The notes under the pieces are model-generated. The model was not told the origin of the DNA. It made no database searches and saw only the letters and a list, made by a program, of their open reading frames with translations. From IMG/VR virus record IMGVR_UViG_3300020205_001800, positions 1 to 64,000 of that record: a stretch of 64,000 nt of DNA. One strand, 5' to 3'. The number at the start of each line of letters is the position of its first letter. Position 1 is the first letter of the stretch. The stretch comes from a virus. This document shows, piece after piece, positions 5,118-60,854 of the stretch. The position numbers and the translations under genes are program-made.

Positions 5118-5834
5118 GTGCCAATTAATCCAGATTTCTCGGCCTTAGAAGCGGTTATTACCGCAAAGGTTGAGTCTGTTGCGACCAACATCGACAACAA
5201 AGATCTTTTAATTCAGATGAAGGCTTTGGAAGCAGCAGTTGCTAACCTAGCCCTAACAAGAGTTATTGCAGAGGGTACTTATCAACAGGGCCAAGTTACT
5301 TCTACAGCCGCAACAGCCGTTACTAACTTAAATGCAGGTGTTACTACAGCCCAAACCAGCTTAAACGGAATTGTAACAACTGCAACTACTAACTTAAATG
5401 CAGCGGCAACTACCGCTATCTCTAACTTTAACGCAGTAGCAACACCTACTCTGGCCACCATTAACCAACTTTTAGATGATCTTGGAGAGACTAATACTGC
5501 CGATATCATTGCGTTAGTAAACTCATCCCTAACCTCTATAACAAACGCTGCAAACTCAGCCAACTCTTCAATTTCATCTGCTCTAAACGACGCTCAAACC
5601 GTCATATCTTCTGTTGGTACTTCGGCTATCGGGTCTGTAAATGACGCTAGAGACGCTGCTGCGGGGGTTCTTTCGACCACACAGAGCTCAGCCGTCACGA
5701 GTATTAACAGTGCTAGAGATCAAGCTTTGGCGGCAGTAAGTGCCTCCGGAGACGTCACAAATCAGATTAACTTTCTAAGAAATGACCGTTGGTTAGGCCT
5801 AGACATATTTGCCCCTACAAATTACAGCAATTGA
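5118..5834 (+). CDS. Ala/Thr/Ser-rich coiled-coil fibre protein
   Basis: AAGGAG RBS and GTG start; heptad-like A/T/N/S-rich sequence. N-terminus resembles that of ORF 5899. Confidence 0.7.
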   Translation: MPINPDFSALEAVITAKVESVATNIDNKDLLIQMKALEAAVANLALTRVIAEGTYQQGQVTSTAATAVTNLNAGVTTAQTSLNGIVTTATTNLNAAATTAISNFNAVATPTLATINQLLDDLGETNTADIIALVNSSLTSITNAANSANSSISSALNDAQTVISSVGTSAIGSVNDARDAAAGVLSTTQSSAVTSINSARDQALAAVSASGDVTNQINFLRNDRWLGLDIFAPTNYSN

Positions 5835-5898
5835 GGTTAAAAATTAAAAATTCTATGTATACTATAACCATGGGTAGCACCCTCGAAGGAGAAATCTA

Positions 5899-7275
5899 AT
5901 GCCAACATATACAGCTCTTAATACGCAAATTGATGCGGTTAAAGCAGAAATAACCTCATCGCTTGCAGCGAGCACGTATACAGCTCAAGACTTGGTATAC
6001 ATTGCCAAGACACTTGAGACTTTGGGCAACCTTCTAGGTATCAATGATCTAGCAGCAGCCTCTGTCGATGCTCAAGCAGCACTCAACGATACACTTGAAG
6101 CAATTCTGGATGGAACAGCTCCTGCTAACGTAGGTAAGTTGTACGTTGGTGCAGAAGCACAAGATTTTGAAACAGCCGCTAGCTTGCAAAACCCAGCAGT
6201 AATTGTCTCTATTGATTCAGACGATTACGCTCAGATCTCGTTCCAGAACGCTGGAAACGGAACTGCCTCTTCAACTGACTTTATTGCATACGCAGAAAAT
6301 GGAACCGATAGCTCTGGTTACATTGATATGGGTATCACATCATCAACATTTAATGACCCTGACTTTACAATTACAGGTCCAAACGATGGATACATCTTTA
6401 TGGTGGCTCCAGAAGTTTTGACTACATCTATTAATGGTAAGTCTTTAACAAATAACGTAGCAACTTTAACAACAACAACTGCACACGGATTCCGCGTAGG
6501 CATGCCAGTTGTTATTTCTGGCGTAGACGGAGTATTCAACGGATCTTACACAATCTCCGCAATCCCTACAACAACAAGTTTTAGATATGCAAAAACAAAC
6601 GGTGACGTAACATTTGCTGGAGTAACTCCTTCAGGAACAGCACTTGCTGGAACAACTGGAAACGGTAACTTAGTTTTTGCAACTGGCGATGCTGGCGATC
6701 AAAACCGCATTGTGTTTGCTGCTGGTGGTCTTGCCTCTGACAACACACAGATGATCATTATCCCAGATCAACAAGTACACATTGAAATTGATACTGAGTC
6801 TACTTCTCCACAGACAGGTGCGCTCCGCGTAGCTGGTGGTCTTGGAGTTAGTGGAAACGTAAATATCGGTGGTGACGTAAACATCACAGGTACTATCTCA
6901 TTTACTGGTGGCGGAACAACAGTTGAGACTGCAAACATCTCCATCGTTGCTCCTATGATCTTTACCGCACAGGACAACCCTTCAAATCTTCTAGACTTTT
7001 CACTTGTTGGTGAGTACAACGTCGGTGGGTCTGATAAGTGGGCTGCTGTGTCTAAGGATGCTACAGACGGTATTTGGAACTTCGTATCCAACATTACTAC
7101 AAAGCCGACTACCACAATCAACTACGCACAAGCAGGACTTGTGTATGACACTATCAAGGTTAATCAAGCAGTACTAGTATCCGCACCAACAATCGGATCT
7201 CACGCAGCAACTAAGAGTTATACTGACCTACAACGTCAAGCTAACGAAATTGCCCAGGTAATGGGCGCTTACTAA
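5899..7275 (+). CDS. Tail fibre/appendage protein
   Basis: TTTAHGFRVG..VVISGV beta module, STSPQTGALRVAGGLGV beta-helix motif and HAATKSYTD fibre motif. Confidence 0.75.
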   Translation: MPTYTALNTQIDAVKAEITSSLAASTYTAQDLVYIAKTLETLGNLLGINDLAAASVDAQAALNDTLEAILDGTAPANVGKLYVGAEAQDFETAASLQNPAVIVSIDSDDYAQISFQNAGNGTASSTDFIAYAENGTDSSGYIDMGITSSTFNDPDFTITGPNDGYIFMVAPEVLTTSINGKSLTNNVATLTTTTAHGFRVGMPVVISGVDGVFNGSYTISAIPTTTSFRYAKTNGDVTFAGVTPSGTALAGTTGNGNLVFATGDAGDQNRIVFAAGGLASDNTQMIIIPDQQVHIEIDTESTSPQTGALRVAGGLGVSGNVNIGGDVNITGTISFTGGGTTVETANISIVAPMIFTAQDNPSNLLDFSLVGEYNVGGSDKWAAVSKDATDGIWNFVSNITTKPTTTINYAQAGLVYDTIKVNQAVLVSAPTIGSHAATKSYTDLQRQANEIAQVMGAY

Positions 7276-22719: not shown

Positions 22720-22867
22720 AATCAGCTATCAAAATGTAATTGATGCCTATGACATGCTAGCCCAGTACTATCCGGGTTGGTCATTAGTAGACATAAGAAA
22801 TTTGTCCGTAAGAGAACGACTAGTGTTTTTATCCAAAGCAATTATGAGGCCTAAGGCGGTGATGTAG
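22709..22867 (+). CDS. Chaperone C-terminal extension in the +1 frame (G-T type frameshift product or small separate gene)
   Basis: Frame open 22694-22867, encoding FAHEISYQNVIDAYDMLAQYYPGWSLVDIRNLSVRERLVFL..., and ending TAG/GTG on the tape-measure start. No RBS of its own is visible. Confidence 0.65.
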   Translation, partial: FAHEISYQNVIDAYDMLAQYYPGWSLVDIRNLSVRERLVFLSKAIMRPKAVM

Positions 22868-25806
22868 TGGCAGACCCAAAGGGAAATATGGGCGCCGGTA
22901 TGGAAGACTTTACCGGTCAAAAAGGCGTATCTAAACTCATCGAAACTGGCACTAAAGGTTTTGGATCTTGGTTAAAGAACTTTAAAGAAGTTTTAACCGT
23001 TGCTGAAAAAACTAGAGACGTTGTAAAACAGACGGCAGATATTCAGGCGGGCAAGGGTTCCAACGGCAGCAAACTTGGTGCTGCCAAGATGGGGCCCGGA
23101 GCCTTCTCTGAACAGATTGGTCTTAAAGGCGGAAAAGCTTTTGCCGAAGAAATAGGTTACACGGGTACTCGTGAAAGCCGTATGGGAGCAGTAGCCCAAG
23201 GCGTAATGGCTGCAGGTTCGCTTGGTATGGGCTTAATGCCAAACACAATGTCGGCTGTAGGGCAAAGACTTGTAGCTGAGCAAATAGGCATGTTCTCTGC
23301 GGGAAATAGAAACCCTAGAGACATAATTAAGCAAGCTAACTCTATGACAGGTGGAGCAGCAACAAGTGCTGGAGCACCTACACGTGCTATGGGAATTATG
23401 TTGTCCCAAGGCGGATACGGTTTAAACTCAGGCTCTACTAGAAACCTTATGGGGCAGCTGGCGGGTGCAAGCGCCATTTCAGGCATGTCTATGGAACAAG
23501 TAGCCTCTTCCACTGCCGGAGCAAGTGGAATGACTTTCTTACGTTTAGGCGTAAGGTTGCGTGACCAAAATGGAAGCATACGTCCATACAACCAACTTGT
23601 AAATGAAATTTACCCAAAGATCTGGCGTGGGGATCCAAAGAACCCAGAATTAATTTTTAACCGTCAAAGCCGAGAAGGATTTACTCTTTCACAAATTACT
23701 GGCGGAGACGAAGGCCTATTTAACATTCTTGCTACGCTTCTTGTGCAACGTGCTAAAAACAAGAAGCCACTAACTGCTGCAAATTTAAAAACAACTAAGG
23801 GCGCGTTGGCCATGGCAGGCAACCCTAATGGGCTAATGCAGTCTGGTTTAGCACAGCAAGCTTCAGAAAACAGATTGCTTGGGGCAACAGAGAGCGGTTT
23901 AGTATCAGGCTACAAGGGGGCACTGGATACCTCTACAGCAGTTAACAACGGCCTTTCAGGTATGGCTGAGCTTCTACCTGGCGTTGTAGATGGACTGGGT
24001 AAGTTAAAGGGATTTTTAGAAACGTTTCCATCTACGGGAAATGCTGGATCAACTTTGTCAGGTTTAGCTGGAAATCTTGGAACCACATTGTTAGCCGGAA
24101 GAATGTTAGGTCTAGGTGGCCCAGGTAAAGTAGCCGTATCAGGTGCAGCAAAAACATTAAGCAAGGGCGTGCCAGTTCTAGGTGCAGCAATAAGTGCCTA
24201 CGGTGGATACAAAGCCGGCAAAGGAAGCAATAAGTTTAATTGGGGATCACTCCTCTCTTCTGCTGGAATAGGCGCCGCTGGTGGCGCTGCAGTAGGAGCA
24301 ATGGGGCTTGGAGTTGCTGCGGTCCCAGGTGCGGTTCTAGGTGCGCTTATTGCTGGCGGTAGTAATGCGGCGGGACAATTGCTTGGGCGAAACCAAGGCG
24401 GTGGTGACGGGAACGAATCCATGAGCGCAAACCTTGGTGGAGGAGCAGATAGTCTTATGGCTCCAGGAACTCACGTGTCTTCAGGATACGGCTCAAGAAA
24501 AGATCCTAACGGTTCTGGAAGACAACACCACAACGGTATTGACTACGCCATGCCTGTGGGCAGCGCAGTTGTTGCGGCTGCCGATGGAAAAGTTGTAATG
24601 ATTAGAAAACAACCCGGAAAGTCTAGAAGCTTTGGTTTGTACATGGTTCTGCAACATAAAGGTTTTTATACATACTACGCACACTTAAGTCAAACAATAG
24701 CTCGACTAGGACAAGAAGTGCGTCAGGGAGAAGTTATTGCAAAGTCTGGTGGAGAAAAAGGCGGACCAAACTCAGGCTCATCAACGGGCCCACACCTACA
24801 CTTTGAGGTTCGTAAATCTCTTACTAGCCCAAACAGCTCAGTAAACCCAACAAGTTTGTTTGGAAAATTAAAAAGCAAAATAAGCAGCCTTCTTGGAAAC
24901 AAAGATCCAGACGGAACTAAGCTTGCGGCGCAAGTAACCAAGAAGTACAGCAACTCTTTAGACGTGCTTGGCATGGGTGCAAACGGCTATGGAAACGCAT
25001 ACACCGGAACTCGTTTGGCAGACTTGCTAAAGAGTGGAAGCGCAATTGGTGTTCAAGACATGATGAACTTTGACAAGATGGGTGTAAATAAAAACCTATC
25101 TGCAGAAGAGCAGGCAGAGTTTAGCCAACACACTGCAAGTTCTGGAGACGGCGGAGGCATGGCATACGGCTCTCGTAAGGGACTAATGTCAGCTCTGTAC
25201 CAGCATGGATTTAGAGGAAAAGGATTAGCAACAGCATTTGGCGTTGCCTTGGCAGAATCCGGCGGCATGTCTAGAGCGTTTAACGGTAAGGGTAGAGACG
25301 AGTCATACGGCGTATTCCAAATTAACATGACTGATAAAGACCCTAAGAGTCCTAATATGGGTACTAATCGTCGTAAGCAATATAACCTAGCTAACAATGA
25401 AGCATTGTTCAATCCCAACACAAACCTTTCAACTGCCTATGGAATCTCGGCAAAGGGTAAATGGTGGGAGCAGTGGGCTACTTACAACGATGGTACTTTT
25501 ACAAAGTATTTAGATGACGCCCAAACAGCCGCACGTAAAGCTGGCGTACCTATTAATTTCTACGGCGAAGGTCGAACAAAAGAAGGTCCGGCATACCTTC
25601 ACGATGATGAAATGGTATTGAATAAGCAACAGGCTGATAAAGTTCGCGGTGGACTAGCGGGCGGTACAGCTCATGATCACCAAGTTGTAGTTAATATGGT
25701 AGTAAACATAGCTCAAGCTGGACAAGCAGAAGTACACGTACTTCTACAGCGCTTTAAAGAAGCTCTTGCTCAAGATAACGTTATTAAGCAGATTGGTTCG
25801 TATTAA
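22867..25806 (+). CDS. Tape measure protein with M23 peptidase and lytic transglycosylase-like domains
   Basis: G/A-rich helical body; HNGID and HLHFE M23 motifs; AESGG...SYGVFQIN...W.QWATY lysozyme-like motif. Confidence 0.9.
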   Translation: MADPKGNMGAGMEDFTGQKGVSKLIETGTKGFGSWLKNFKEVLTVAEKTRDVVKQTADIQAGKGSNGSKLGAAKMGPGAFSEQIGLKGGKAFAEEIGYTGTRESRMGAVAQGVMAAGSLGMGLMPNTMSAVGQRLVAEQIGMFSAGNRNPRDIIKQANSMTGGAATSAGAPTRAMGIMLSQGGYGLNSGSTRNLMGQLAGASAISGMSMEQVASSTAGASGMTFLRLGVRLRDQNGSIRPYNQLVNEIYPKIWRGDPKNPELIFNRQSREGFTLSQITGGDEGLFNILATLLVQRAKNKKPLTAANLKTTKGALAMAGNPNGLMQSGLAQQASENRLLGATESGLVSGYKGALDTSTAVNNGLSGMAELLPGVVDGLGKLKGFLETFPSTGNAGSTLSGLAGNLGTTLLAGRMLGLGGPGKVAVSGAAKTLSKGVPVLGAAISAYGGYKAGKGSNKFNWGSLLSSAGIGAAGGAAVGAMGLGVAAVPGAVLGALIAGGSNAAGQLLGRNQGGGDGNESMSANLGGGADSLMAPGTHVSSGYGSRKDPNGSGRQHHNGIDYAMPVGSAVVAAADGKVVMIRKQPGKSRSFGLYMVLQHKGFYTYYAHLSQTIARLGQEVRQGEVIAKSGGEKGGPNSGSSTGPHLHFEVRKSLTSPNSSVNPTSLFGKLKSKISSLLGNKDPDGTKLAAQVTKKYSNSLDVLGMGANGYGNAYTGTRLADLLKSGSAIGVQDMMNFDKMGVNKNLSAEEQAEFSQHTASSGDGGGMAYGSRKGLMSALYQHGFRGKGLATAFGVALAESGGMSRAFNGKGRDESYGVFQINMTDKDPKSPNMGTNRRKQYNLANNEALFNPNTNLSTAYGISAKGKWWEQWATYNDGTFTKYLDDAQTAARKAGVPINFYGEGRTKEGPAYLHDDEMVLNKQQADKVRGGLAGGTAHDHQVVVNMVVNIAQAGQAEVHVLLQRFKEALAQDNVIKQIGSY

Positions 25807-40148: not shown

Positions 40149-40371
40149 CGGAAGCCAGTTATGCGCCGAGGTTGATCCGGAGTTGTTCTTTCCCGAAGAG
40201 TATGAAAACAGACTGGCAGTGCTTACTGCAAAGTCTGTTTGTAATGAATGCCCTCTAACCAGTGCATGTTTAACATACGCATTAGCTAACCCAGAACTTG
40301 ACGGTATCTGGGGAGCTACAACTCCCAGAGAGCGACGTAATATGCGTCGCCGAAAGAAGGCATCAAGATGA
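40120..40371 (+). CDS. whiB: WhiB-family Fe-S transcription factor
   Basis: C...DPELFFP...AK.VC..CP....CL.YAL...GIWG.T..ER with basic tail. Confidence 0.95.
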   Translation: MDLLNLSPFNGSQLCAEVDPELFFPEEYENRLAVLTAKSVCNECPLTSACLTYALANPELDGIWGATTPRERRNMRRRKKASR

Positions 40372-50358: not shown

Positions 50359-50700
50359 ATGAATCCAGACGATCCAGCATGGACGTGGAGATATGAAGCA
50401 AAGTGTCGTGGGGTAGATACAGAGATATTTTTTCCACCGCGAGACAGGGCTTTGTATAAGCCAATAGCTGATCAAGCTAAGGCAATTTGCTGGGGCAAGG
50501 ACGGTAGTCCTCCGTGCCCGGTTCGCAAAGAGTGTCTAAAAGAGGCTATAGTTAATGATGAACTGCATGGGATATTCGGCGGCATGTCGCACCGAGAGAG
50601 AAATGCGGCTCAACGTAAATACAAAAAGCAAGGCCTAACGTTAGATGAATGGATAAACAAAGATGGCAAGTACAGAGAAACCTCGCATACTTCAGAGTAA
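50359..50700 (+). CDS. whiB: Second WhiB-family transcription factor
   Basis: W...AKC...D.EIFFP...AK.IC.....CPVR.ECL..A.....GIFGG....ER. Confidence 0.93.
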   Translation: MNPDDPAWTWRYEAKCRGVDTEIFFPPRDRALYKPIADQAKAICWGKDGSPPCPVRKECLKEAIVNDELHGIFGGMSHRERNAAQRKYKKQGLTLDEWINKDGKYRETSHTSE

Positions 50701-55402: not shown

Positions 55403-56117
55403 AAAGATTATTTTTAAAGCGCGAGATAAGTACGGATTTGACACGCAACCTCGTCCTTACCCAGCAGCACAAAACCTACCTGACTGGTGGAAAGACGCTG
55501 CTCCGTATATGAAGTCACCTAAAAACCCAGATGGAAAAAAGCTAATTGTTAGCCAAAGAGTTTCTAACGCTGGGTTTAAGAAGTGCTACCCAATGCTCGA
55601 TGCAATGTTGTCAGGTTACATTATTCCTCTATGGGCAGATGTTCAAGTATCTTGGGATGAAAAAGGTAACCCCCTAATTAACTCTAGAACCCATGCCCAA
55701 GTATTCTCAATGCACGGGCACTCGGCTAGGGATGTGCATCCTCCGGTTGGTTACACTAATTTTGTATACAAGTATATTAATACTTGGATTCCTATTACTC
55801 CGCCAGGGTATTCTGTACTGGTTACACCGCCCTTTGGTCATAGAAACTTACCTTTTCAAGCTATTCCAGCAATTGTAGATAGCGATAAGTCCAGTTTAGA
55901 GATTGTTCCTCCCATGTGGCTTAAAGAAGGTTTTGAAGGCATTATAGAAAAAGGAACGCCTTTAGTTCAGATTACTCCGTTTAAGAGAACTTCTTGGAAA
56001 GCTGAGTTTGAGTACTACGATGGTCATGACTATCAGACTCTTCAGGAACGAAACTTTAACGCAAATATAGTTAACCATTATGTTAGAAACGCGTGGTCTA
56101 AAAAAGACTACAAGTAA
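55395..56117 (+). CDS. Conserved-looking hypothetical protein, possibly dUTPase-like beta fold
   Basis: KKC.P.LD.M..GYII, TPPGYS.L..PP, VD.D and KGTPL.Q..PFKR motifs. Confidence 0.6.
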   Translation: MDKKIIFKARDKYGFDTQPRPYPAAQNLPDWWKDAAPYMKSPKNPDGKKLIVSQRVSNAGFKKCYPMLDAMLSGYIIPLWADVQVSWDEKGNPLINSRTHAQVFSMHGHSARDVHPPVGYTNFVYKYINTWIPITPPGYSVLVTPPFGHRNLPFQAIPAIVDSDKSSLEIVPPMWLKEGFEGIIEKGTPLVQITPFKRTSWKAEFEYYDGHDYQTLQERNFNANIVNHYVRNAWSKKDYK

Positions 56118-56155
56118 TAAAAAAACCCCCGGCTAATAACCGGGGGTTTTTTATT
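56116..56155. terminator. Bidirectional terminator between convergent operons
   Basis: AATAAAAAAACCCCCGG-CTAATAA-CCGGGGGTTTTTTATT. Confidence 0.92.
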
Positions 56156-56249
56156 AATCTTTATCTGCCCACCAACAACCTATTACGGTTGCTAGTACTA
56201 ACGTAACAAGGAATATTCCTTGAAAGGTTATATGGGTTAGGTAGTACAT
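56154..56249 (-). CDS. 31-aa single-TM peptide (MYYLTHITFQGIFLVTLVLATVIGCWWADKD)
   Basis: TAATG coupling to the CHAP gene; stops at the terminator. Not in the ORF track. Confidence 0.55.
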   Translation of the reverse strand: MYYLTHITFQGIFLVTLVLATVIGCWWADKD

Positions 56250-56800
56250 TACTTACCGCAGGTTGGGCACTTGTTAGAAGAAGTTTTCTTTGCTGGTGCT
56301 TTCCCAAATTTAGGGCGACCAAAGCCAACAATTGAAATCATTACGCCAGCTTTGTTCTTTTTAAAAGCACGAAGTTGTTTGCAAACTTCTCCGCCATTTC
56401 TTTGGCTTCCAGACTTCTTTGAAGATGTATTTCCTTCAATACACCAAACGGTTCCATCTTCATTGTCTTTTACAACAATACCTACGTGAGAAATTCTATC
56501 AACACCATCTGAGGGGAAATCAAAATAAACGATATCTCCTGGTTCTGGGTCTGCGATGTCTCCATCAATCCAAGCGCCAGCTTTTTTAAAAGCCTGCGCT
56601 CCGCCTGGTGTGTAAACAGTGTTAGGAATTTTTACGCCAGCTTCGTTCCCGCACCAGTTAATGAAACTTCCGCACCATGGTTGGAAGTTAGCCTTTGTAT
56701 AAGCACCGTACTTTGTCTCGTTGTCCTTAGGACCCTCGATAGTACCTAGCTCTGCTGTAGCAACTTCAATAAGGCGTGCCGCTGTTCCTTGATCTGCCAT
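56249..56800 (-). CDS. CHAP-domain peptidoglycan hydrolase (endolysin candidate)
   Basis: PWCGSF catalytic Cys, PGDIV.FD, HVGIV, IEGNT and GFGRP motifs; C-terminal CPTCGK. Confidence 0.9.
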   Translation of the reverse strand: MADQGTAARLIEVATAELGTIEGPKDNETKYGAYTKANFQPWCGSFINWCGNEAGVKIPNTVYTPGGAQAFKKAGAWIDGDIADPEPGDIVYFDFPSDGVDRISHVGIVVKDNEDGTVWCIEGNTSSKKSGSQRNGGEVCKQLRAFKKNKAGVMISIVGFGRPKFGKAPAKKTSSNKCPTCGK

Positions 56801-57210
56801 TAGTCTTTATCCCAATCTGTATCAACTGGCTGTGGTTCTGGCATAGCACCGTCTGGCTTTGCTGCTAAACGAGCAGCTGTGGCATCGATCTCTGCTTCAA
56901 GTTTCTTATCCGCCTGTGTGTTCTTTGCGTCCATCTCTTTGTTGGACAACTGTGCTGCCATAATGTCTTTAGCACCAGATTGACCAATAAGAATACCCGC
57001 AAGAGTTCCTGTAATAAAAGTAGCAATGCTGCCTAACACGTTAAAGAACATCTTGTCATTCTCTGACTGCGCTCCGATAGGCTGGGTTACGAATAAAAGA
57101 CCGTAAAGAATACCTAGAGATGTGCACAGTAGAATAGTTCCTAGTGTTATGCCTAGAATGAACTTTAATCTAGCGTCTAGGTCTTGTGGTGTTAGTTTTT
57201 CTCTACTCAT
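56800..57210 (-). CDS. Two-TM membrane protein with C-terminal coil
   Basis: Two hydrophobic helices separated by QPIGAQSENDK. Confidence 0.78.
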   Translation of the reverse strand: MSREKLTPQDLDARLKFILGITLGTILLCTSLGILYGLLFVTQPIGAQSENDKMFFNVLGSIATFITGTLAGILIGQSGAKDIMAAQLSNKEMDAKNTQADKKLEAEIDATAARLAAKPDGAMPEPQPVDTDWDKD

Positions 57211-57409
57211 TTGGTGTTCCTTCTGGTTGCGGGGTCTTAACTAAGTCTACCGGACAAGTCTGTGTTGCAGTGCAAATAGGTGGTTTACACTCTTCTACTT
57301 CCCAGTTTTTTGGGTCTTGACATGGATATCTGAAGAAACCGTCATAACCACAACTGGTTAATGACAGTGTCAACAGTAGTGTGGCTAGTCCGCAGGTAAT
57401 TTTTTTCAT
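57203..57409 (-). CDS. Small Cys-rich lipoprotein
   Basis: MKK plus hydrophobic core plus lipobox LTS-C; mature part has 4 more Cys (RYPCQDP.NW...C.PP.C.....CP). Confidence 0.82.
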   Translation of the reverse strand: MKKITCGLATLLLTLSLTSCGYDGFFRYPCQDPKNWEVEECKPPICTATQTCPVDLVKTPQPEGTPNE

Positions 57410-57576
57410 TCATCATCCTTTGGGTTACGTAGTGGATAAGTAACCGCCCATGCAAATAACGTTCCAATAATTGCGTACCCCACAATGGTCTTTGCAGATC
57501 CATCAAGGACTACCCAAGCAATGAACATGCCTAGCAGAGTCCATAGTTGATCAATCATGTCTCTTATTACTCTCAT
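57406..57576 (-). CDS. 56-aa two-TM membrane protein (MRVIRDMIDQLWTLLGMFIAWVVLDGSAK...)
   Basis: ATGA overlaps at both ends; two hydrophobic segments. Not in the ORF track. Confidence 0.75.
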   Translation of the reverse strand: MRVIRDMIDQLWTLLGMFIAWVVLDGSAKTIVGYAIIGTLFAWAVTYPLRNPKDDE

Positions 57577-60263
57577 GGCTTACGTCTCCTGACTCCCTTT
57601 GATTCTCCAGAAGCGCCTCCGCCTCCAGAACTTCCTCCTCCACCAGAACCACCAGTGGATGAACTACCTGCAGCACCAGCGGCAGCTCCTACAGCGTTCA
57701 TAGCAGCACCTGCGGCTACAACCGTTGCAACAACCATGTCAGTTGCTTCTTCGCGTTCTTCAGTGGACATATCAGCACCGATACTTCCTAGTGCTTGTAG
57801 TGCCTGCCCAGGGTCGCTAAATATTGCGCCAATTAATTCGGAAGGGCTCTCTAGTAAAACTAGGGCCGCAGCTACGTCTGCTGTAATTATAACTTCATTA
57901 CCGTTTTCATCCTGCCTAACCTCGACCGGAGTATCTTCTGGTAGGTCCTTATACTCAATGCCTGCGTCTTGAATTTGCTCTGATGTAAGGGTTTCTCCAG
58001 GGGCTACTGATTCAATAAGTGCTTCTGCTACCAATTCTTTTTCAGCGGTAGTTAACTTGCCGTCTTCTGATAAAGCTTCAGATAGGGCGCTTACTTCCTC
58101 CGCAGTAACTTCTCCGTCTGCATTTAGAGCATCCATAACAGCCTCGGCATCGGCAACAGTAAGCGTGCCGTCAGATATAACATCCTCTACGGCAGCCGTA
58201 ACCTCTTCAGTTTCTGTGATAGGCTCTGGTTCTGGCTCTGGAGCAGGTTCCGGAGCAGTTTCTTCAATAGGAGGTTCTAATGGTTCTGTGGACGGATTTT
58301 CTGGCTCTGGCTCTGGTGTCACTGGTTCTGGTGTTGTTTCCTCGGGTGTGGAAGGTTCAACAGGCGCCTCGGGCTCTACGGGTGGCGTTTCGGGCTCTAC
58401 CGGTTCTGGTAGGGGCTCTATGGGTGGTAATGGCTCTTCTGTGGCAGGTTCAGTAGGTGGCTCTACAGGAGTTGGTTCGGGCTCTACAGGCTCAACAGGA
58501 GGCTGTTCTGGCTCAGGCACAGGTTCAGGCTCGACTTCTGGGGTTGGTGGCAGAGGTTCTACAGGATTTGGAGAAATAGGCGATGGATCAGGAGTCACAG
58601 GATTTTCAGAAGGTGTGGGATCTGGAGTTGGAGCGGGCGCGACAGGCTGTGGATCAGTGGTTGGCTCAGGGTTCTGAGGAACTACTGGTGGAACAACTTC
58701 TGGAGCAGGAGGATTTGGAACGGGATCAACTACAGGAGTCGGTTCGCTCGGCTGTTGAGGTTGCGGTTCAAGCACTGGAGGTGCTGGGGGCACATAAGTT
58801 TGAACAGCTGCCACAGCCTGAACCACAAGTTGAGTTGCTGAATCCGCCAATTGATCAGCAACAGCAATAGTTGCTGTTGCGCTATCTGTAAGAGTAATTA
58901 ATGTAGCAACTTCAGTTGCTTTAACCTCTGTTTTATCTACTACTACTACTTGAGCAGCGGCAATAGTTTCCGTGCTTACCTCAGTCATTGGCTTTACAGG
59001 TTGCCCTGCAGCCTCACGAACACCAATACGAGGACCATTATGAAGAGCGGTAGTATTTCCTGCAACGGTTCCTACACCAGTCCATTCCCCTGTTGTTGGA
59101 TTGACTGTCATCTTCCAATTTACATTTGTAATAGGACTATTTGGTTGTGCAAATTTGTGCAAATTCCAATCGACTTCTAAAGTAGTTTCGGTAGTTTTTA
59201 CAACAGTTGAAGAGCCATTTGCGTTATCGTTCATAAAGTCGCTACCAAAGACTGAGATGTGTGCTCCAGCAGGAAAATCCCACCAGTTATAGTCGCCATT
59301 ACCAAAGGTAATAGTTGCTTTTGAAGTTACGTAAATTTGGCTAGCTGTTCCTTGGCCCTCATAAATTGTGTTGCCCATCTTAATATCAAACGGGGTTTGA
59401 ATTTTAGTCGCACCGTCGTACATAACTGGCAAAGTAGTTGTGGTAACTGTTGGAGTTTCAGGGGTAACAGGAGCAACGTATCCGGTTGTTGTGTACACCT
59501 TAGTATTCTCTGTTGCGGTTGTTAGCACCTCTAAAGCAGTCTGGGCGTTAGTTAAATTTGTAGTGGCTGTAGCTACAACAGCTGTCTGAGAGTCCACAGC
59601 CTGCACAGCTATTACAGCTACGGCTGTAGCGCTCTCGGCAACAGCAAGGGCTGTAGTGGCAGCTGTGATTTCAGGGGCTGCTGAGGAAACTGCTGCTGCA
59701 GTTGCCGTCTCAACAGCTGCTGTCAATGTTACAGTTGCGCTTTCAATTTTTTCTTGAACGGAGGCTATTGATGGAGTTTCTGGAGTCGTGGCAGGGGTTG
59801 TTGTGGTCGTTGTACCTTCTGTTGACTGGGTGGATTGTTGGGTGGATTCAGACGAGGGAGCCGTTGATTCGGAAGGTGAAGGCTCTGGAGTCGGGGTTGG
59901 AGTTGGACTCGGTTCAGAAGATGGAGCGGATTCTGATGTTGGAAGAGGAGTTGCGCTGGTCGAAGGCGAAGGTTCAGGCGCAGGAGTCGGACTTGGATCG
60001 GATGCAGAAGAAGTTGGTGTGGAGCTCGGGGATGGACTTGCCTCAGCAGAATATGTCGTACTGGAGGTTTGAGGGTCCGAAGTTGCAGAAGAGGGTTGTG
60101 GACTTGGAGATGGAGTTGGAGTCGCTTCGTTCGAAGACGGTGTGGAAGCAGGACTAACTGCAACCGTATCTACAGTCGGATCTGTTGCTTCTGCTGAATT
60201 TTGTCCCAATATAAGCAGGAATAGTGCGAGGATTAGTGCTGCGAATATGCGCAGTGCGATTAT
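57573..60263 (-). CDS. Large secreted/surface mucin-like protein (S/T/P stalk, coiled coil with beta insert, P/E stalk, acidic repeats, C-terminal anchor)
   Basis: Frame open to TAA at 60264-66. The upstream extension IIALRIFAALILALFLLILGQNSAEA is a signal peptide with AAGGAGAG RBS at 60268-75. C-terminal hydrophobic A/G stretch is followed by RRRKP. Confidence 0.8.
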   Translation of the reverse strand: MIALRIFAALILALFLLILGQNSAEATDPTVDTVAVSPASTPSSNEATPTPSPSPQPSSATSDPQTSSTTYSAEASPSPSSTPTSSASDPSPTPAPEPSPSTSATPLPTSESAPSSEPSPTPTPTPEPSPSESTAPSSESTQQSTQSTEGTTTTTTPATTPETPSIASVQEKIESATVTLTAAVETATAAAVSSAAPEITAATTALAVAESATAVAVIAVQAVDSQTAVVATATTNLTNAQTALEVLTTATENTKVYTTTGYVAPVTPETPTVTTTTLPVMYDGATKIQTPFDIKMGNTIYEGQGTASQIYVTSKATITFGNGDYNWWDFPAGAHISVFGSDFMNDNANGSSTVVKTTETTLEVDWNLHKFAQPNSPITNVNWKMTVNPTTGEWTGVGTVAGNTTALHNGPRIGVREAAGQPVKPMTEVSTETIAAAQVVVVDKTEVKATEVATLITLTDSATATIAVADQLADSATQLVVQAVAAVQTYVPPAPPVLEPQPQQPSEPTPVVDPVPNPPAPEVVPPVVPQNPEPTTDPQPVAPAPTPDPTPSENPVTPDPSPISPNPVEPLPPTPEVEPEPVPEPEQPPVEPVEPEPTPVEPPTEPATEEPLPPIEPLPEPVEPETPPVEPEAPVEPSTPEETTPEPVTPEPEPENPSTEPLEPPIEETAPEPAPEPEPEPITETEEVTAAVEDVISDGTLTVADAEAVMDALNADGEVTAEEVSALSEALSEDGKLTTAEKELVAEALIESVAPGETLTSEQIQDAGIEYKDLPEDTPVEVRQDENGNEVIITADVAAALVLLESPSELIGAIFSDPGQALQALGSIGADMSTEEREEATDMVVATVVAAGAAMNAVGAAAGAAGSSSTGGSGGGGSSGGGGASGESKGVRRRKP

Positions 60264-60357
60264 TTATCTCTCCTTAAGAACTATGCTCATACTTTAACAT
60301 GACACGGTGTATTTTGTGTATCATAGTTACCCTTACAACTTGATTTTTGGAGACTTA

Positions 60358-60564
60358 ATGACACCTCAAGACTGGGCAGCGTTTGCGCTCTCAATAACTT
60401 CTTTAATCGGCGCATTTGCAATAATGATTCGGTGGATGGTTAAACATTACTTATCCGAACTTAAACCTAATTCTGGCAGCAGTTTAAAAGACGCCGTTAA
60501 TAGGTTGGAATCAAGAATTGACGACCTATACTTTATGCTCGCAGATCGAAACAACAAGGAGTAA
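60358..60564 (+). CDS. Single-TM + coiled-coil protein (holin-associated membrane protein)
   Basis: GGAG RBS before ATG 60358; TM followed by ELKPNSGSSLKD.V.RLE..ID motif. Confidence 0.72.
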   Translation: MTPQDWAAFALSITSLIGAFAIMIRWMVKHYLSELKPNSGSSLKDAVNRLESRIDDLYFMLADRNNKE

Positions 60565-60566
60565 TT

Positions 60567-60854
60567 ATGAAACTAGATCCAAAATTAACAGCAGCACTTT
60601 CATCTTATGGCCGCGCATTTTTAGCAGCGGCGCTCGCAGTATGGAGCACAGGAAATCATGACCTTAAGGGTCTAGCCGCAGCAGGAGCTGCAGCAGTTCT
60701 TCCTGTAGTACTTCGTGCTTTGAATCCAAAGGACCCAGCATTTGGCCTAGTAAAGCTTGCTTTGCCAGAAGTTGAGAAGCAATTGGCGTCTATTTTGGCA
60801 GATTCAAACAAGAAAGCTGCAACTAAGAAAGCCACAGCCAAGAAGACGAAGTAA
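60567..60854 (+). CDS. Holin-like protein
   Basis: SY.RAF.AA.LA...A..AAV.PV.LR.LNP.D.AFG with two TMs and a Lys-rich tail. Confidence 0.68.
   Translation: MKLDPKLTAALSSYGRAFLAAALAVWSTGNHDLKGLAAAGAAAVLPVVLRALNPKDPAFGLVKLALPEVEKQLASILADSNKKAATKKATAKKTK

Follow-up and report, generated by a model that had tools for sequence, protein, structure and literature searches.

The first 64,000 nt of the IMG/VR virus record IMGVR_UViG_3300020205_001800 (the window) contain a cassette of six minus-strand genes, called here big, g56, lipo68, g136, CHAP and g31 in the order in which they are read. We are confident that this locus has a two-module structure. Module 1 (56249–57409) comprises lipo68, g136 and CHAP. 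Module 2 (57406–60263) comprises big and g56, two genes that stay together and move independently of module 1. As a whole the locus probably combines a lysis core with a separable pair of proteins for surface display, judging from gene order, domain content and covariation.

Gene big (57573–60263) is an open reading frame (ORF) with a non-canonical start, encoding a predicted type I membrane protein of 896 residues. Gene g56 (57406–57576) encodes a 56-residue hairpin of two transmembrane (TM) segments, recognised from its ORF and its hydrophobic stretches. Gene lipo68 (57203–57409) encodes a 68-residue lipoprotein with the lipobox L-T-S-C and five further cysteines, and g136 (56800–57210) a 136-residue 2-TM protein of family phrog_25359 with a charged, helical, Pro-rich C-terminal tail. 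They are followed by CHAP (56249–56800), an endolysin gene of 183 codons (Pfam PF05257), and by g31 (56154–56249), an ORF for a 31-residue peptide with one TM segment. Successive genes overlap by 4, 4, 8, 1 and 1 nt, the stop of g136 overlapping the start of CHAP by a single nucleotide. A bidirectional intrinsic terminator (56120–56152, both strands), with a G+C-rich stem of 13–15 bp and U-tracts on both strands, separates the cassette from a convergent plus-strand gene that ends at 56117. The first-pass annotation of this DNA had described six minus-strand genes overlapping by 1–8 nt and ending at a bidirectional terminator. It listed a signal-peptide protein of about 897 residues with its segments, a 2-TM protein, a Cys-rich lipoprotein, a 2-TM/coil protein, a CHAP peptidase and a 1-TM peptide. 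All of this holds, with the large protein at 896 residues.

With g136 and CHAP as queries, IMG/VR gave more than 598 confirmed contigs per search; 80 were kept each time, and these yielded 108 distinct loci. Genes lipo68, g136 and CHAP are contiguous in about 100 of them. In 88 of the 108 loci g56 joins this trio without interruption, and the five-gene order big-g56-lipo68-g136-CHAP is kept there. The trio is found without an upstream g56 or big in 9–11 loci where the contig is long enough to show them, and three loci hold g56 and CHAP but neither lipo68 nor the membrane domain of g136. Genes big and g56 lie downstream of CHAP in one relative (L019), and about 4.4 kb off on the opposite strand in another (L067). 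A synteny survey of the six genes had been suggested with the first-pass annotation, a lack of joint conservation being taken to speak against a single system. The core trio does stay together, but the six genes are not one co-conserved unit, which refutes the single system in part.

Pairwise distances in 66 loci place the boundary between the modules. The Spearman correlation between the big C-terminus and g56 is 0.74, and that between g56 and the adjacent lipo68 is 0.07. Gene g56 reaches 0.21 with g136 and 0.20 with CHAP, and the correlations of big or g56 with core genes range from 0.07 to 0.24. Given the values of 0.74 and 0.07, the exchange breakpoint falls between g56 and lipo68 and spares the junction of big and g56. 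Averaged over pairs, divergence is 0.53 for the big C-terminus, 0.45 for g56, 0.38 for lipo68 and 0.15–0.16 for g136 and CHAP.

Wherever the contig allows, g56 lies directly 3′ of a big-type gene, in 70 distinct close relatives and in 15 more divergent phage contigs. None of CHAP, g136 and lipo68 occurs near g56 in those 15 contigs. Two of them (L170, L181) carry, in order, an r1t-like holin, a PA14 protein, g56 and a small M23 peptidase, and a third (L176) carries an fn3 protein, g56 and an r1t-like holin. The pair also occurs without a recognised hydrolase in other lineages. The only bacterial genome that matches the pair is a freshwater actinobacterial metagenome-assembled genome (MAG), acMicro-4. 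There (L166 5083–6503, JNSD01000013.1) a g56 homologue overlaps the gene of a 323-residue protein that has a lipobox-type signal, the conserved anchor and a Pro/Glu stretch. The two genes adjoin tRNA-Thr, with MFS, fasciclin, pfkB, DeoR and PTS genes around them. The g56 profile was found in one of 301 genomes sampled from the order of the MAG and in one of 81 relatives. By its distribution, the pair is autonomous and essentially phage-borne, usually but not always in lysis cassettes.

The first-pass annotation had suggested a single membrane complex of all six products, in which a mucin-like shield or adhesin is displayed and CHAP opens the peptidoglycan. The tight translational coupling of all six genes and the five-gene order of the 88 loci are in keeping with such a complex, but the linkage data largely refute it, since they reveal two units with independent histories. 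The pair occurs with M23, without a hydrolase or alone, and the position upstream of CHAP can be taken by a holin domain. CHAP lacks an export signal, and no support was found for its opening the wall for display. Gene g31 is not a constant member either, as its homologues (N-terminal MYYLTHITFQG, WW near the end) lie 3′ of CHAP in only about 8 of 102 distinct loci. A single complex of the six products is thus very improbable. In most relatives the position of g31 is held by a 47-residue acidic soluble protein that is unrelated to it, and g31 is, from this distribution, lineage-specific and outside the core.

The region 3′ of CHAP varies further. Several relatives of the window (L072, L085, L086, L096) carry SNase-like genes there, and four (L146, L147, L155, L158) carry a protein of about 185–197 residues that resembles Ntn-hydrolases or proteasome subunits. 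In L176 (4335–4928) a proteasome-subunit-like protein follows the r1t-like holin (Pfam Proteasome, 22.5 bits, at the cut-off).

The CHAP protein scores 42.6 bits against Pfam PF05257 (cut-off 26, E 8.9e-11; 44 bits in the genome scan) and matches PHROG endolysin families with E down to 4e-26. Residues C43, H105, E122 and N124 are invariant in 67 sequences, and C43 and H105 are the presumed catalytic residues by analogy with the family. Neither a signal peptide nor a wall-binding domain was found in the protein, by inspection of the sequence and with Pfam. Genome scans detected no Amidase_2 or GH25 domain, and the sole M23 domain lies inside a 979-residue tail protein. CHAP is thus the only free-standing peptidoglycan hydrolase found outside the tail protein, and from this and the PHROG matches it is predicted to be the lysis endolysin. 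The tail protein (22867–25806), in the position of a tape measure, scores 88.6 bits for its M23 peptidase domain, presumably a virion-borne wall hydrolase for entry.

The g136 family forms 181 clusters at 50% identity and is conserved over residues 3–85. Gene g136 has the features by which a holin is commonly recognised, encoding a small 2-TM protein with a charged C-terminus next to the endolysin gene. Its position is interchangeable with a holin-like domain. In three relatives that share the flanks of the window (L129, L135, L151) a single 128-residue protein replaces lipo68 and the g136 membrane domain. The N-terminal half of this chimera is r1t-holin-like and the C-terminal half is the g136 tail (L129 4554–4940), with the motif K-P-D-G-x-x-P-E-x-Q-P-V-D-x-D-W. 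It is thus the tail, not the TM domain, that stays beside the endolysin gene. The r1t assignment itself is weak: PF16945 gives E 0.022, below the cut-off, and phrog_443 gives E 0.007, or 1.5e-5 for the homologue in the Actinomycetia phage DSL-LC01.

The likeness to the Phage_r1t family (PF16945/phrog_443) extends beyond these chimeras, in which an r1t-like domain takes the place of lipo68 and the g136 TM domain before CHAP. Genes of the r1t type also flank big and g56 in L170, L176 and L181 and precede lipo68 and g136 in DSL-LC01. Unlike the weak matches of the relatives, g136 itself gives no match to this family. Because the slot upstream of CHAP holds either g136 or an r1t-like holin domain, the core follows ordinary holin-endolysin logic. 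The earlier statement that this is not a standard holin-endolysin cassette therefore finds no support for these genes, the more so as CHAP lacks a signal peptide.

The core would work as follows. The cytoplasmic CHAP endolysin would pass the membrane through g136, a 2-TM protein of the holin type, and lipo68, a small disulfide-rich lipoprotein, would accompany the g136 membrane domain and assist or modulate lysis. Module 1 is very likely a phage lysis cassette, and g136 is probably its holin, though we hold the latter with some reserve. Three observations weigh against this assignment. Gene g136 matches no holin family in Pfam or PHROG, its TM domain varies less than is usual in holins (mean pairwise distance 0.145), and the lipo68-g136 pair of DSL-LC01 does not adjoin an endolysin. 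The identity of the g136 membrane domain remains at 85–98% across loci where g56 and lipo68 fall to 36–50%. Its conservation suggests a constrained partner or target.

The lipo68 protein has four conserved cysteines in its mature part and the motif R-Y-P-C-Q-D-P-x-N-W-E-x-x-E-C-x-P-P-x-C (88 distinct sequences). It accompanies the g136 TM domain in about 100 loci and is missing exactly where that domain is missing. Three consecutive genes of DSL-LC01 are the r1t-like gene and homologues of lipo68 (51% identity, E 5e-12) and g136 (66%, E 8e-31). An unrelated spring-water phage, MW202675.1 from Manatee Spring, encodes homologues of both about 580 nt upstream of a GH19+PG_binding_1 endolysin, and its lipo68 homologue has a TM helix in place of the lipobox. 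This joint presence and loss in the relatives, DSL-LC01 and MW202675.1 indicates that lipo68 belongs with the g136 membrane domain and not with big, and we read it as a probable lysis accessory or modulator. The full order in MW202675.1 (L168 2400–4691) is a 1-TM coiled-coil protein, the TM-anchored lipo68 homologue, the g136 homologue, a 55-residue protein, a secreted SNase and the endolysin.

It was reported that mycobacteriophages of the F1 cluster and D29 lyse their hosts with 2-TMD/1-TMD regulators (TMD, transmembrane domain) and a lipoprotein modulator (PMC13056207, bioRxiv 10.64898/2026.08.27.747656). The present core is similar in that the endolysin gene is preceded by one for a small 2-TM protein with both ends predicted inside, extra 1-TM proteins (g31, h68) lie nearby and a lipoprotein accompanies it. 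However, no sequence relationship was found, LysB is lacking here, and CHAP is a bare domain. Gene 64 of D29, which encodes the lipoprotein, lies elsewhere and is dispensable, whereas lipo68 strictly adjoins the 2-TM g136. The lysis core is therefore of the holin-endolysin kind and known in type; what is new is the g136 family with its obligate lipoprotein partner.

The first-pass annotation had noted a divergently transcribed holin-like pair (60358 and 60567) apart from the CHAP gene; these genes find no holin-family support. They are h68 (one TM segment and a helix; phrog_9869, of unknown function) and h95, within 60358–60854. The PF16945 profile matches none of g136, g56, h68 and h95. We considered h95 as an r1t-type holin and rejected it, as it does not align with the r1t-like protein of L129 and has no match in the phage database. 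L181 and L183 have h68-like genes no more than about 1 kb from g56, L014 and L028 have them about 3 kb downstream of CHAP, and it is possible that h68 is a 1-TM lysis regulator.

The record is a complete phage genome of 100,626 bp with direct terminal repeats. Three WhiB-family genes are encoded in it, at 40156–40344 and 50386–50607 of the window and at 79176–79379 of the genome. Among annotated proteins, those closest to CHAP are endolysins from phages of Streptomyces and Actinomyces, and the lake-derived DSL-LC01 is the sole match at the DNA level among deposited phages. From these three lines together we read the virus as a freshwater actinophage. From the G+C content of 44–46% we infer a low-GC planktonic actinobacterium as its host. 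The host is presumably monoderm, and the signals (WhiB genes, CHAP relatives and the actinobacterial MAG homologue) are all actinobacterial.

A spanin-like system, the second proposal of the first-pass annotation, would have lipo68 as the o-spanin and g136 or g56 as the i-spanin, bridging to an outer layer. As with Rz/Rz1, a gene for a small lipoprotein, containing Cys and Pro and bearing a lipobox, overlaps a membrane-protein gene beside an endolysin gene, and in MW202675.1 a 1-TM coiled-coil protein precedes the lipo68-g136 pair. However, g136 and g56 each have two TM segments, unlike the single N-terminal TM segment and spanning coiled coil of an i-spanin. With two TM segments, g136 is predicted to have its tail in the cytoplasm instead of across the envelope. 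The lipo68 homologue of MW202675.1 is TM-anchored and thus expected in the cytoplasmic membrane, and no spanin family matched in Pfam, PHROG or NCBIfam. The actinobacterial signature also argues against a bridge to an outer membrane. The proposal fails on topology and, for a presumably monoderm host, on host type, and we give it hardly any credence.

Module 2 is dominated by big, whose start is unusual. An in-frame TAA is followed by ATA (60263) and ATC (60260), which lie 6–9 nt after the Shine-Dalgarno sequence AAGGAG (60270–60275, minus strand). The codon aligned with this start is ATG in L012 and L024. In four other relatives (L013, L120, L129, L135) no ATG, GTG or TTG precedes the hydrophobic core of big, which lies upstream of the first TTG and is conserved at the protein level. 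It appears from these alignments that big is a very long gene with a naturally weak start. A conserved CTG at 60254 is an alternative start.

Residues 1–26 of big form a signal peptide with predicted cleavage after A-E-A. Then come a mucin-like, S/T/P-rich segment (27–165), an Ala/Thr/Val-rich segment (166–254), an aromatic beta domain that forms the head (255–430; 58974–59501, minus strand) and a second Ala-rich stretch. A Pro/Glu-rich stalk of about 200 residues, assigned by composition (about 491–690; 58158–58748), leads to an anchor module that is conserved in alignments across the relatives (57576–58157). Within it lie three D-G-x-[LV]-T repeats (698–738), a hydrophobic helix (about 843–866), a Gly/Ser tract and a terminal RRRKP. 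In the relatives, the gene upstream of g56 always encodes a protein of 450–1,020 residues. It begins with a signal peptide and ends in a helix and basic residues, and the body between them varies. The counterpart of the stalk in relatives is matched as low complexity of the Extensin_1 or PARP-like kind. In line with what the first-pass annotation had supposed, the architecture of the large protein is that of a wall-spanning adhesin or lectin of the surface, and a small membrane protein is dedicated to it as partner. From this architecture, big is likely a surface-displayed binder with g56 as its partner.

The heads of big-type proteins are diverse. PA14 was found in 51 of 120 big homologues among the matches listed, others carrying Gal_Lectin or fn3, and the beta domain of the window occurs in about 50 of 139 homologues. 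PA14 (PF07691) matches neither big nor the genome of the window's phage; it is present at the orthologous position in many relatives. AlphaFold2 models residues 255–430 with a predicted local distance difference test (pLDDT) score of 73 overall and 84–94 in the core. A Foldseek search of PDB gave no match at E ≤ 0.001, the best VIA wide match having Z 4.9. A 'NIDO-like' label for these residues derives from an ESM-Atlas lead of 0.87 only, with no match in Pfam or among solved structures. The head profile gave one weak match in 301 genomes of the class of the MAG.

Other heads were seen in single proteins. P0092 and P0103 are big-type proteins with Gal_Lectin heads, and P0117, a 527-residue metagenome protein from ENA, carries a PF00912 transglycosylase head (glycosyltransferase of the penicillin-binding protein type). 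The PA14 big-type gene of L170 (4242–6001) is apparently split: a 497-codon ORF ends at 5735 and the anchor module lies in a 72-codon ORF at 5783–6001. The split may be a frameshift, an assembly error or real.

The anchor module is predicted to consist of three helix-loop-helix repeats, a beta hairpin, helices, a long TM helix and a basic end (AlphaFold2, pLDDT 69.5). It had no structural match and no usable match in the ESM Atlas. A phmmer search against PDB sequences yielded low-complexity noise only. Each of the three D-G-x-[LV]-T-x-x-E loops is framed by predicted helices, and Ala occupies loop position 1. The repeats named in the first-pass annotation as EF-hand-like are present, but the EF-hand label is a pattern match only; EF-hand_7 scores weakly in L017, and TerB reaches 22.7 bits against a cut-off of 24.4 in L020. 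The juxtamembrane motif G-x-D-M-[ST]-x-x-[EQ]-R-E is invariant across all anchor types. An LPXTG or LAXTG sorting motif is lacking before the C-terminal helix of big, although the helix and the RRRKP tail are present. None of the NCBIfam sorting-signal models matched the whole proteins or the C-termini of 70–75 residues of five anchor types.

Four types of g56 match four anchor types one to one, and 14 positions of g56 are invariant across the types. In Pfam and PHROG g56 matches no holin family. These relations, together with the covariation above, point to g56 as a dedicated partner of the C-terminal anchor of big, with which we infer it to be in contact. No matching family was found for the pair, and no description of it was found in the literature, of which our coverage is incomplete.

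How the pair may act can be outlined. Sec would export big, its C-terminal helix would keep it anchored, and this helix and the juxtamembrane motif would contact the g56 hairpin. The stalk would cross the wall and carry a swappable head of the glycan-binding type. The head would bind envelope glycans of the infected or lysing cell and so occupy the receptor-bearing surface. Such masking of receptors would spare superinfecting phage and released progeny from being wasted on the cell or its debris. Module 2 is probably made with the lysis genes, because it rides in the lysis cassettes of many freshwater actinophages.

We propose receptor masking, that is, exclusion and protection of progeny from debris, as the role of big and g56 only tentatively. 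It is consistent with the lectin-type heads, their rapid swapping, the stand-alone bacterial copy and a precedent with PA14 cargo (PMC7468147). In that precedent, Cryophage encodes variable exported proteins, a PA14 protein among them, which share a conserved C-terminal sorting domain as cargo of a type IX secretion system (T9SS), and strain competition or superinfection exclusion was discussed as their role (PMC7468147). The big proteins resemble this cargo in being highly variable exported proteins of the PA14 type with a shared conserved C-terminal targeting part. They differ in that Cryophage relies on the T9SS of its Bacteroidota host, whereas big has a TM anchor and a phage-encoded 2-TM partner and occurs in lysis cassettes of Actinomycetota phages.

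Several findings weigh against masking. The head encoded in the window gave no match to any lectin family or fold; neither NIDO nor PA14 nor a lectin was detected by Pfam in 19 members, and structure searches gave no match. It has no paralogue among the tail genes of the phage or elsewhere in its genome, so a specificity shared by head and tail fibre is unsupported. The weak ATA/ATC start speaks against a dense shield. The copy in the MAG is headless and may be a remnant, and a place within lysis cassettes suits a lysis accessory no less than masking.

As a lysis accessory, big and g56 would be a functional analogue of spanins, LysB or LysZ in a monoderm actinobacterium. The head and stalk would engage glycopolymers anchored to wall or membrane and, once peptidoglycan is cleaved, help to break the glycopolymer layer left over, so letting the cell burst. 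The pair lies in lysis cassettes with three different combinations of hydrolase and holin, CHAP lacks a wall-binding domain of its own, and the diversity of heads could track that of host glycopolymers. LysZ and LysY, accessory lysis membrane proteins of Corynebacteriales and Micrococcales phages, are tied to envelope glycopolymers, and LysZ sets the precedent that membrane proteins in actinophage cassettes overcome lipoglycans (PMC13123898). They share with big and g56 a place in actinophage lysis cassettes, a membrane location, an unknown fold and segments that are helical or rich in Pro. In a comparison by description only, LysZ has a disordered N-terminus, one TM segment, a long helix, a linker rich in Pro and a helix at the C-terminus, unlike big with its signal peptide and C-terminal TM segment. 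However, the core occurs without the pair within 5–6 kb in 9–11 loci, the MAG holds the pair alone, where a lysis factor would be useless, and no mechanism connects lectin binding with rupture. We consider such an accessory rather unlikely.

The pair might instead time lysis, with g56 as a holin- or antiholin-like hairpin and big as an extracellular antenna for a signal such as superinfection, following the logic of T4 RI and T. Protein g56 has the size and topology of a class II holin, its variation closely follows that of the TM and juxtamembrane segment of big, and the pair adjoins holin and endolysin genes in several lineages. A weak start codon would also suit a low-copy regulator. Against these points stand the lack of a holin-family match for g56, the absence of any sign of signalling and the stand-alone MAG copy with no holin or lysin nearby. 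A timing sensor is improbable on this balance.

PA14-headed flocculins and wall-spanning LPXTG adhesins bind glycans with a distal head on a low-complexity stalk, and basic residues come after their hydrophobic helix at the C-terminus. The course of head, stalk, C-terminal helix and basic end is the same in big, whereas big has no LPXTG or LAXTG and carries the motif G-x-D-M-[ST]-x-x-[EQ]-R-E. In line with this flocculin-like build of PA14 or lectin head, long stalk and membrane anchor, big could be an adhesin that sticks infected cells to particles, algae or each other, which would change the place of lysis and involve no role in exclusion or lysis itself. But nothing links it to aggregation, its steady placement with lysis genes would stay unexplained, and the weak start codon of this lineage argues against dense display. 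There is little to recommend this role.

In short, the pair resembles adhesins in build, T9SS cargo in logic, and spanins, LysB and LysZ in genomic address. It is conceivable, though doubtful, that big and g56 are a new two-gene system of actinophage lysis cassettes, in which a wall-spanning, lectin-headed protein, held by a dedicated 2-TM partner by way of its TM anchor and a new juxtamembrane motif, acts at lysis on host envelope glycans, as the monoderm counterpart of spanins or LysZ or as an external sensor of lysis timing.

The cassette sits at the end of a replication module (helicases, DNA polymerase, recombinase, exonucleases) and is convergent with it at the terminator. It had been called the only minus-strand operon. 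This is correct for the window; elsewhere in the 100.6-kb genome lies another minus-strand block, at about 71–85 kb. In three relatives (L010, L014, L028) the same cassette lies in a different neighbourhood and runs in the direction of its flanking genes; its inversion is thus a feature of the lineage of the window. A 12-mer 'early' motif is absent from the surroundings of the cassette and shows no enrichment in the window.

Phages with these genes are very common in lakes, with 3,735 clusters of the g136 family and 834 of big homologues, as counted by the anchor, at 90% identity, besides the more than 598 IMG/VR contigs per query; their hosts are largely uncultured. The six-gene 'operon' is an assembly of independently moving parts. 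One part offers a candidate holin family with an obligate lipoprotein partner, and the other a phage-encoded membrane-anchoring pair, anchor module plus 2-TM hairpin, outside the curated sorting systems. The hypervariable lectin-type head may point to the surface glycans that matter in encounters between phages and freshwater Actinomycetota. If big and g56 do form a new lysis-cassette system, their swappable heads would be a record of how diverse the surface glycans are in the most abundant Actinomycetota of fresh water.

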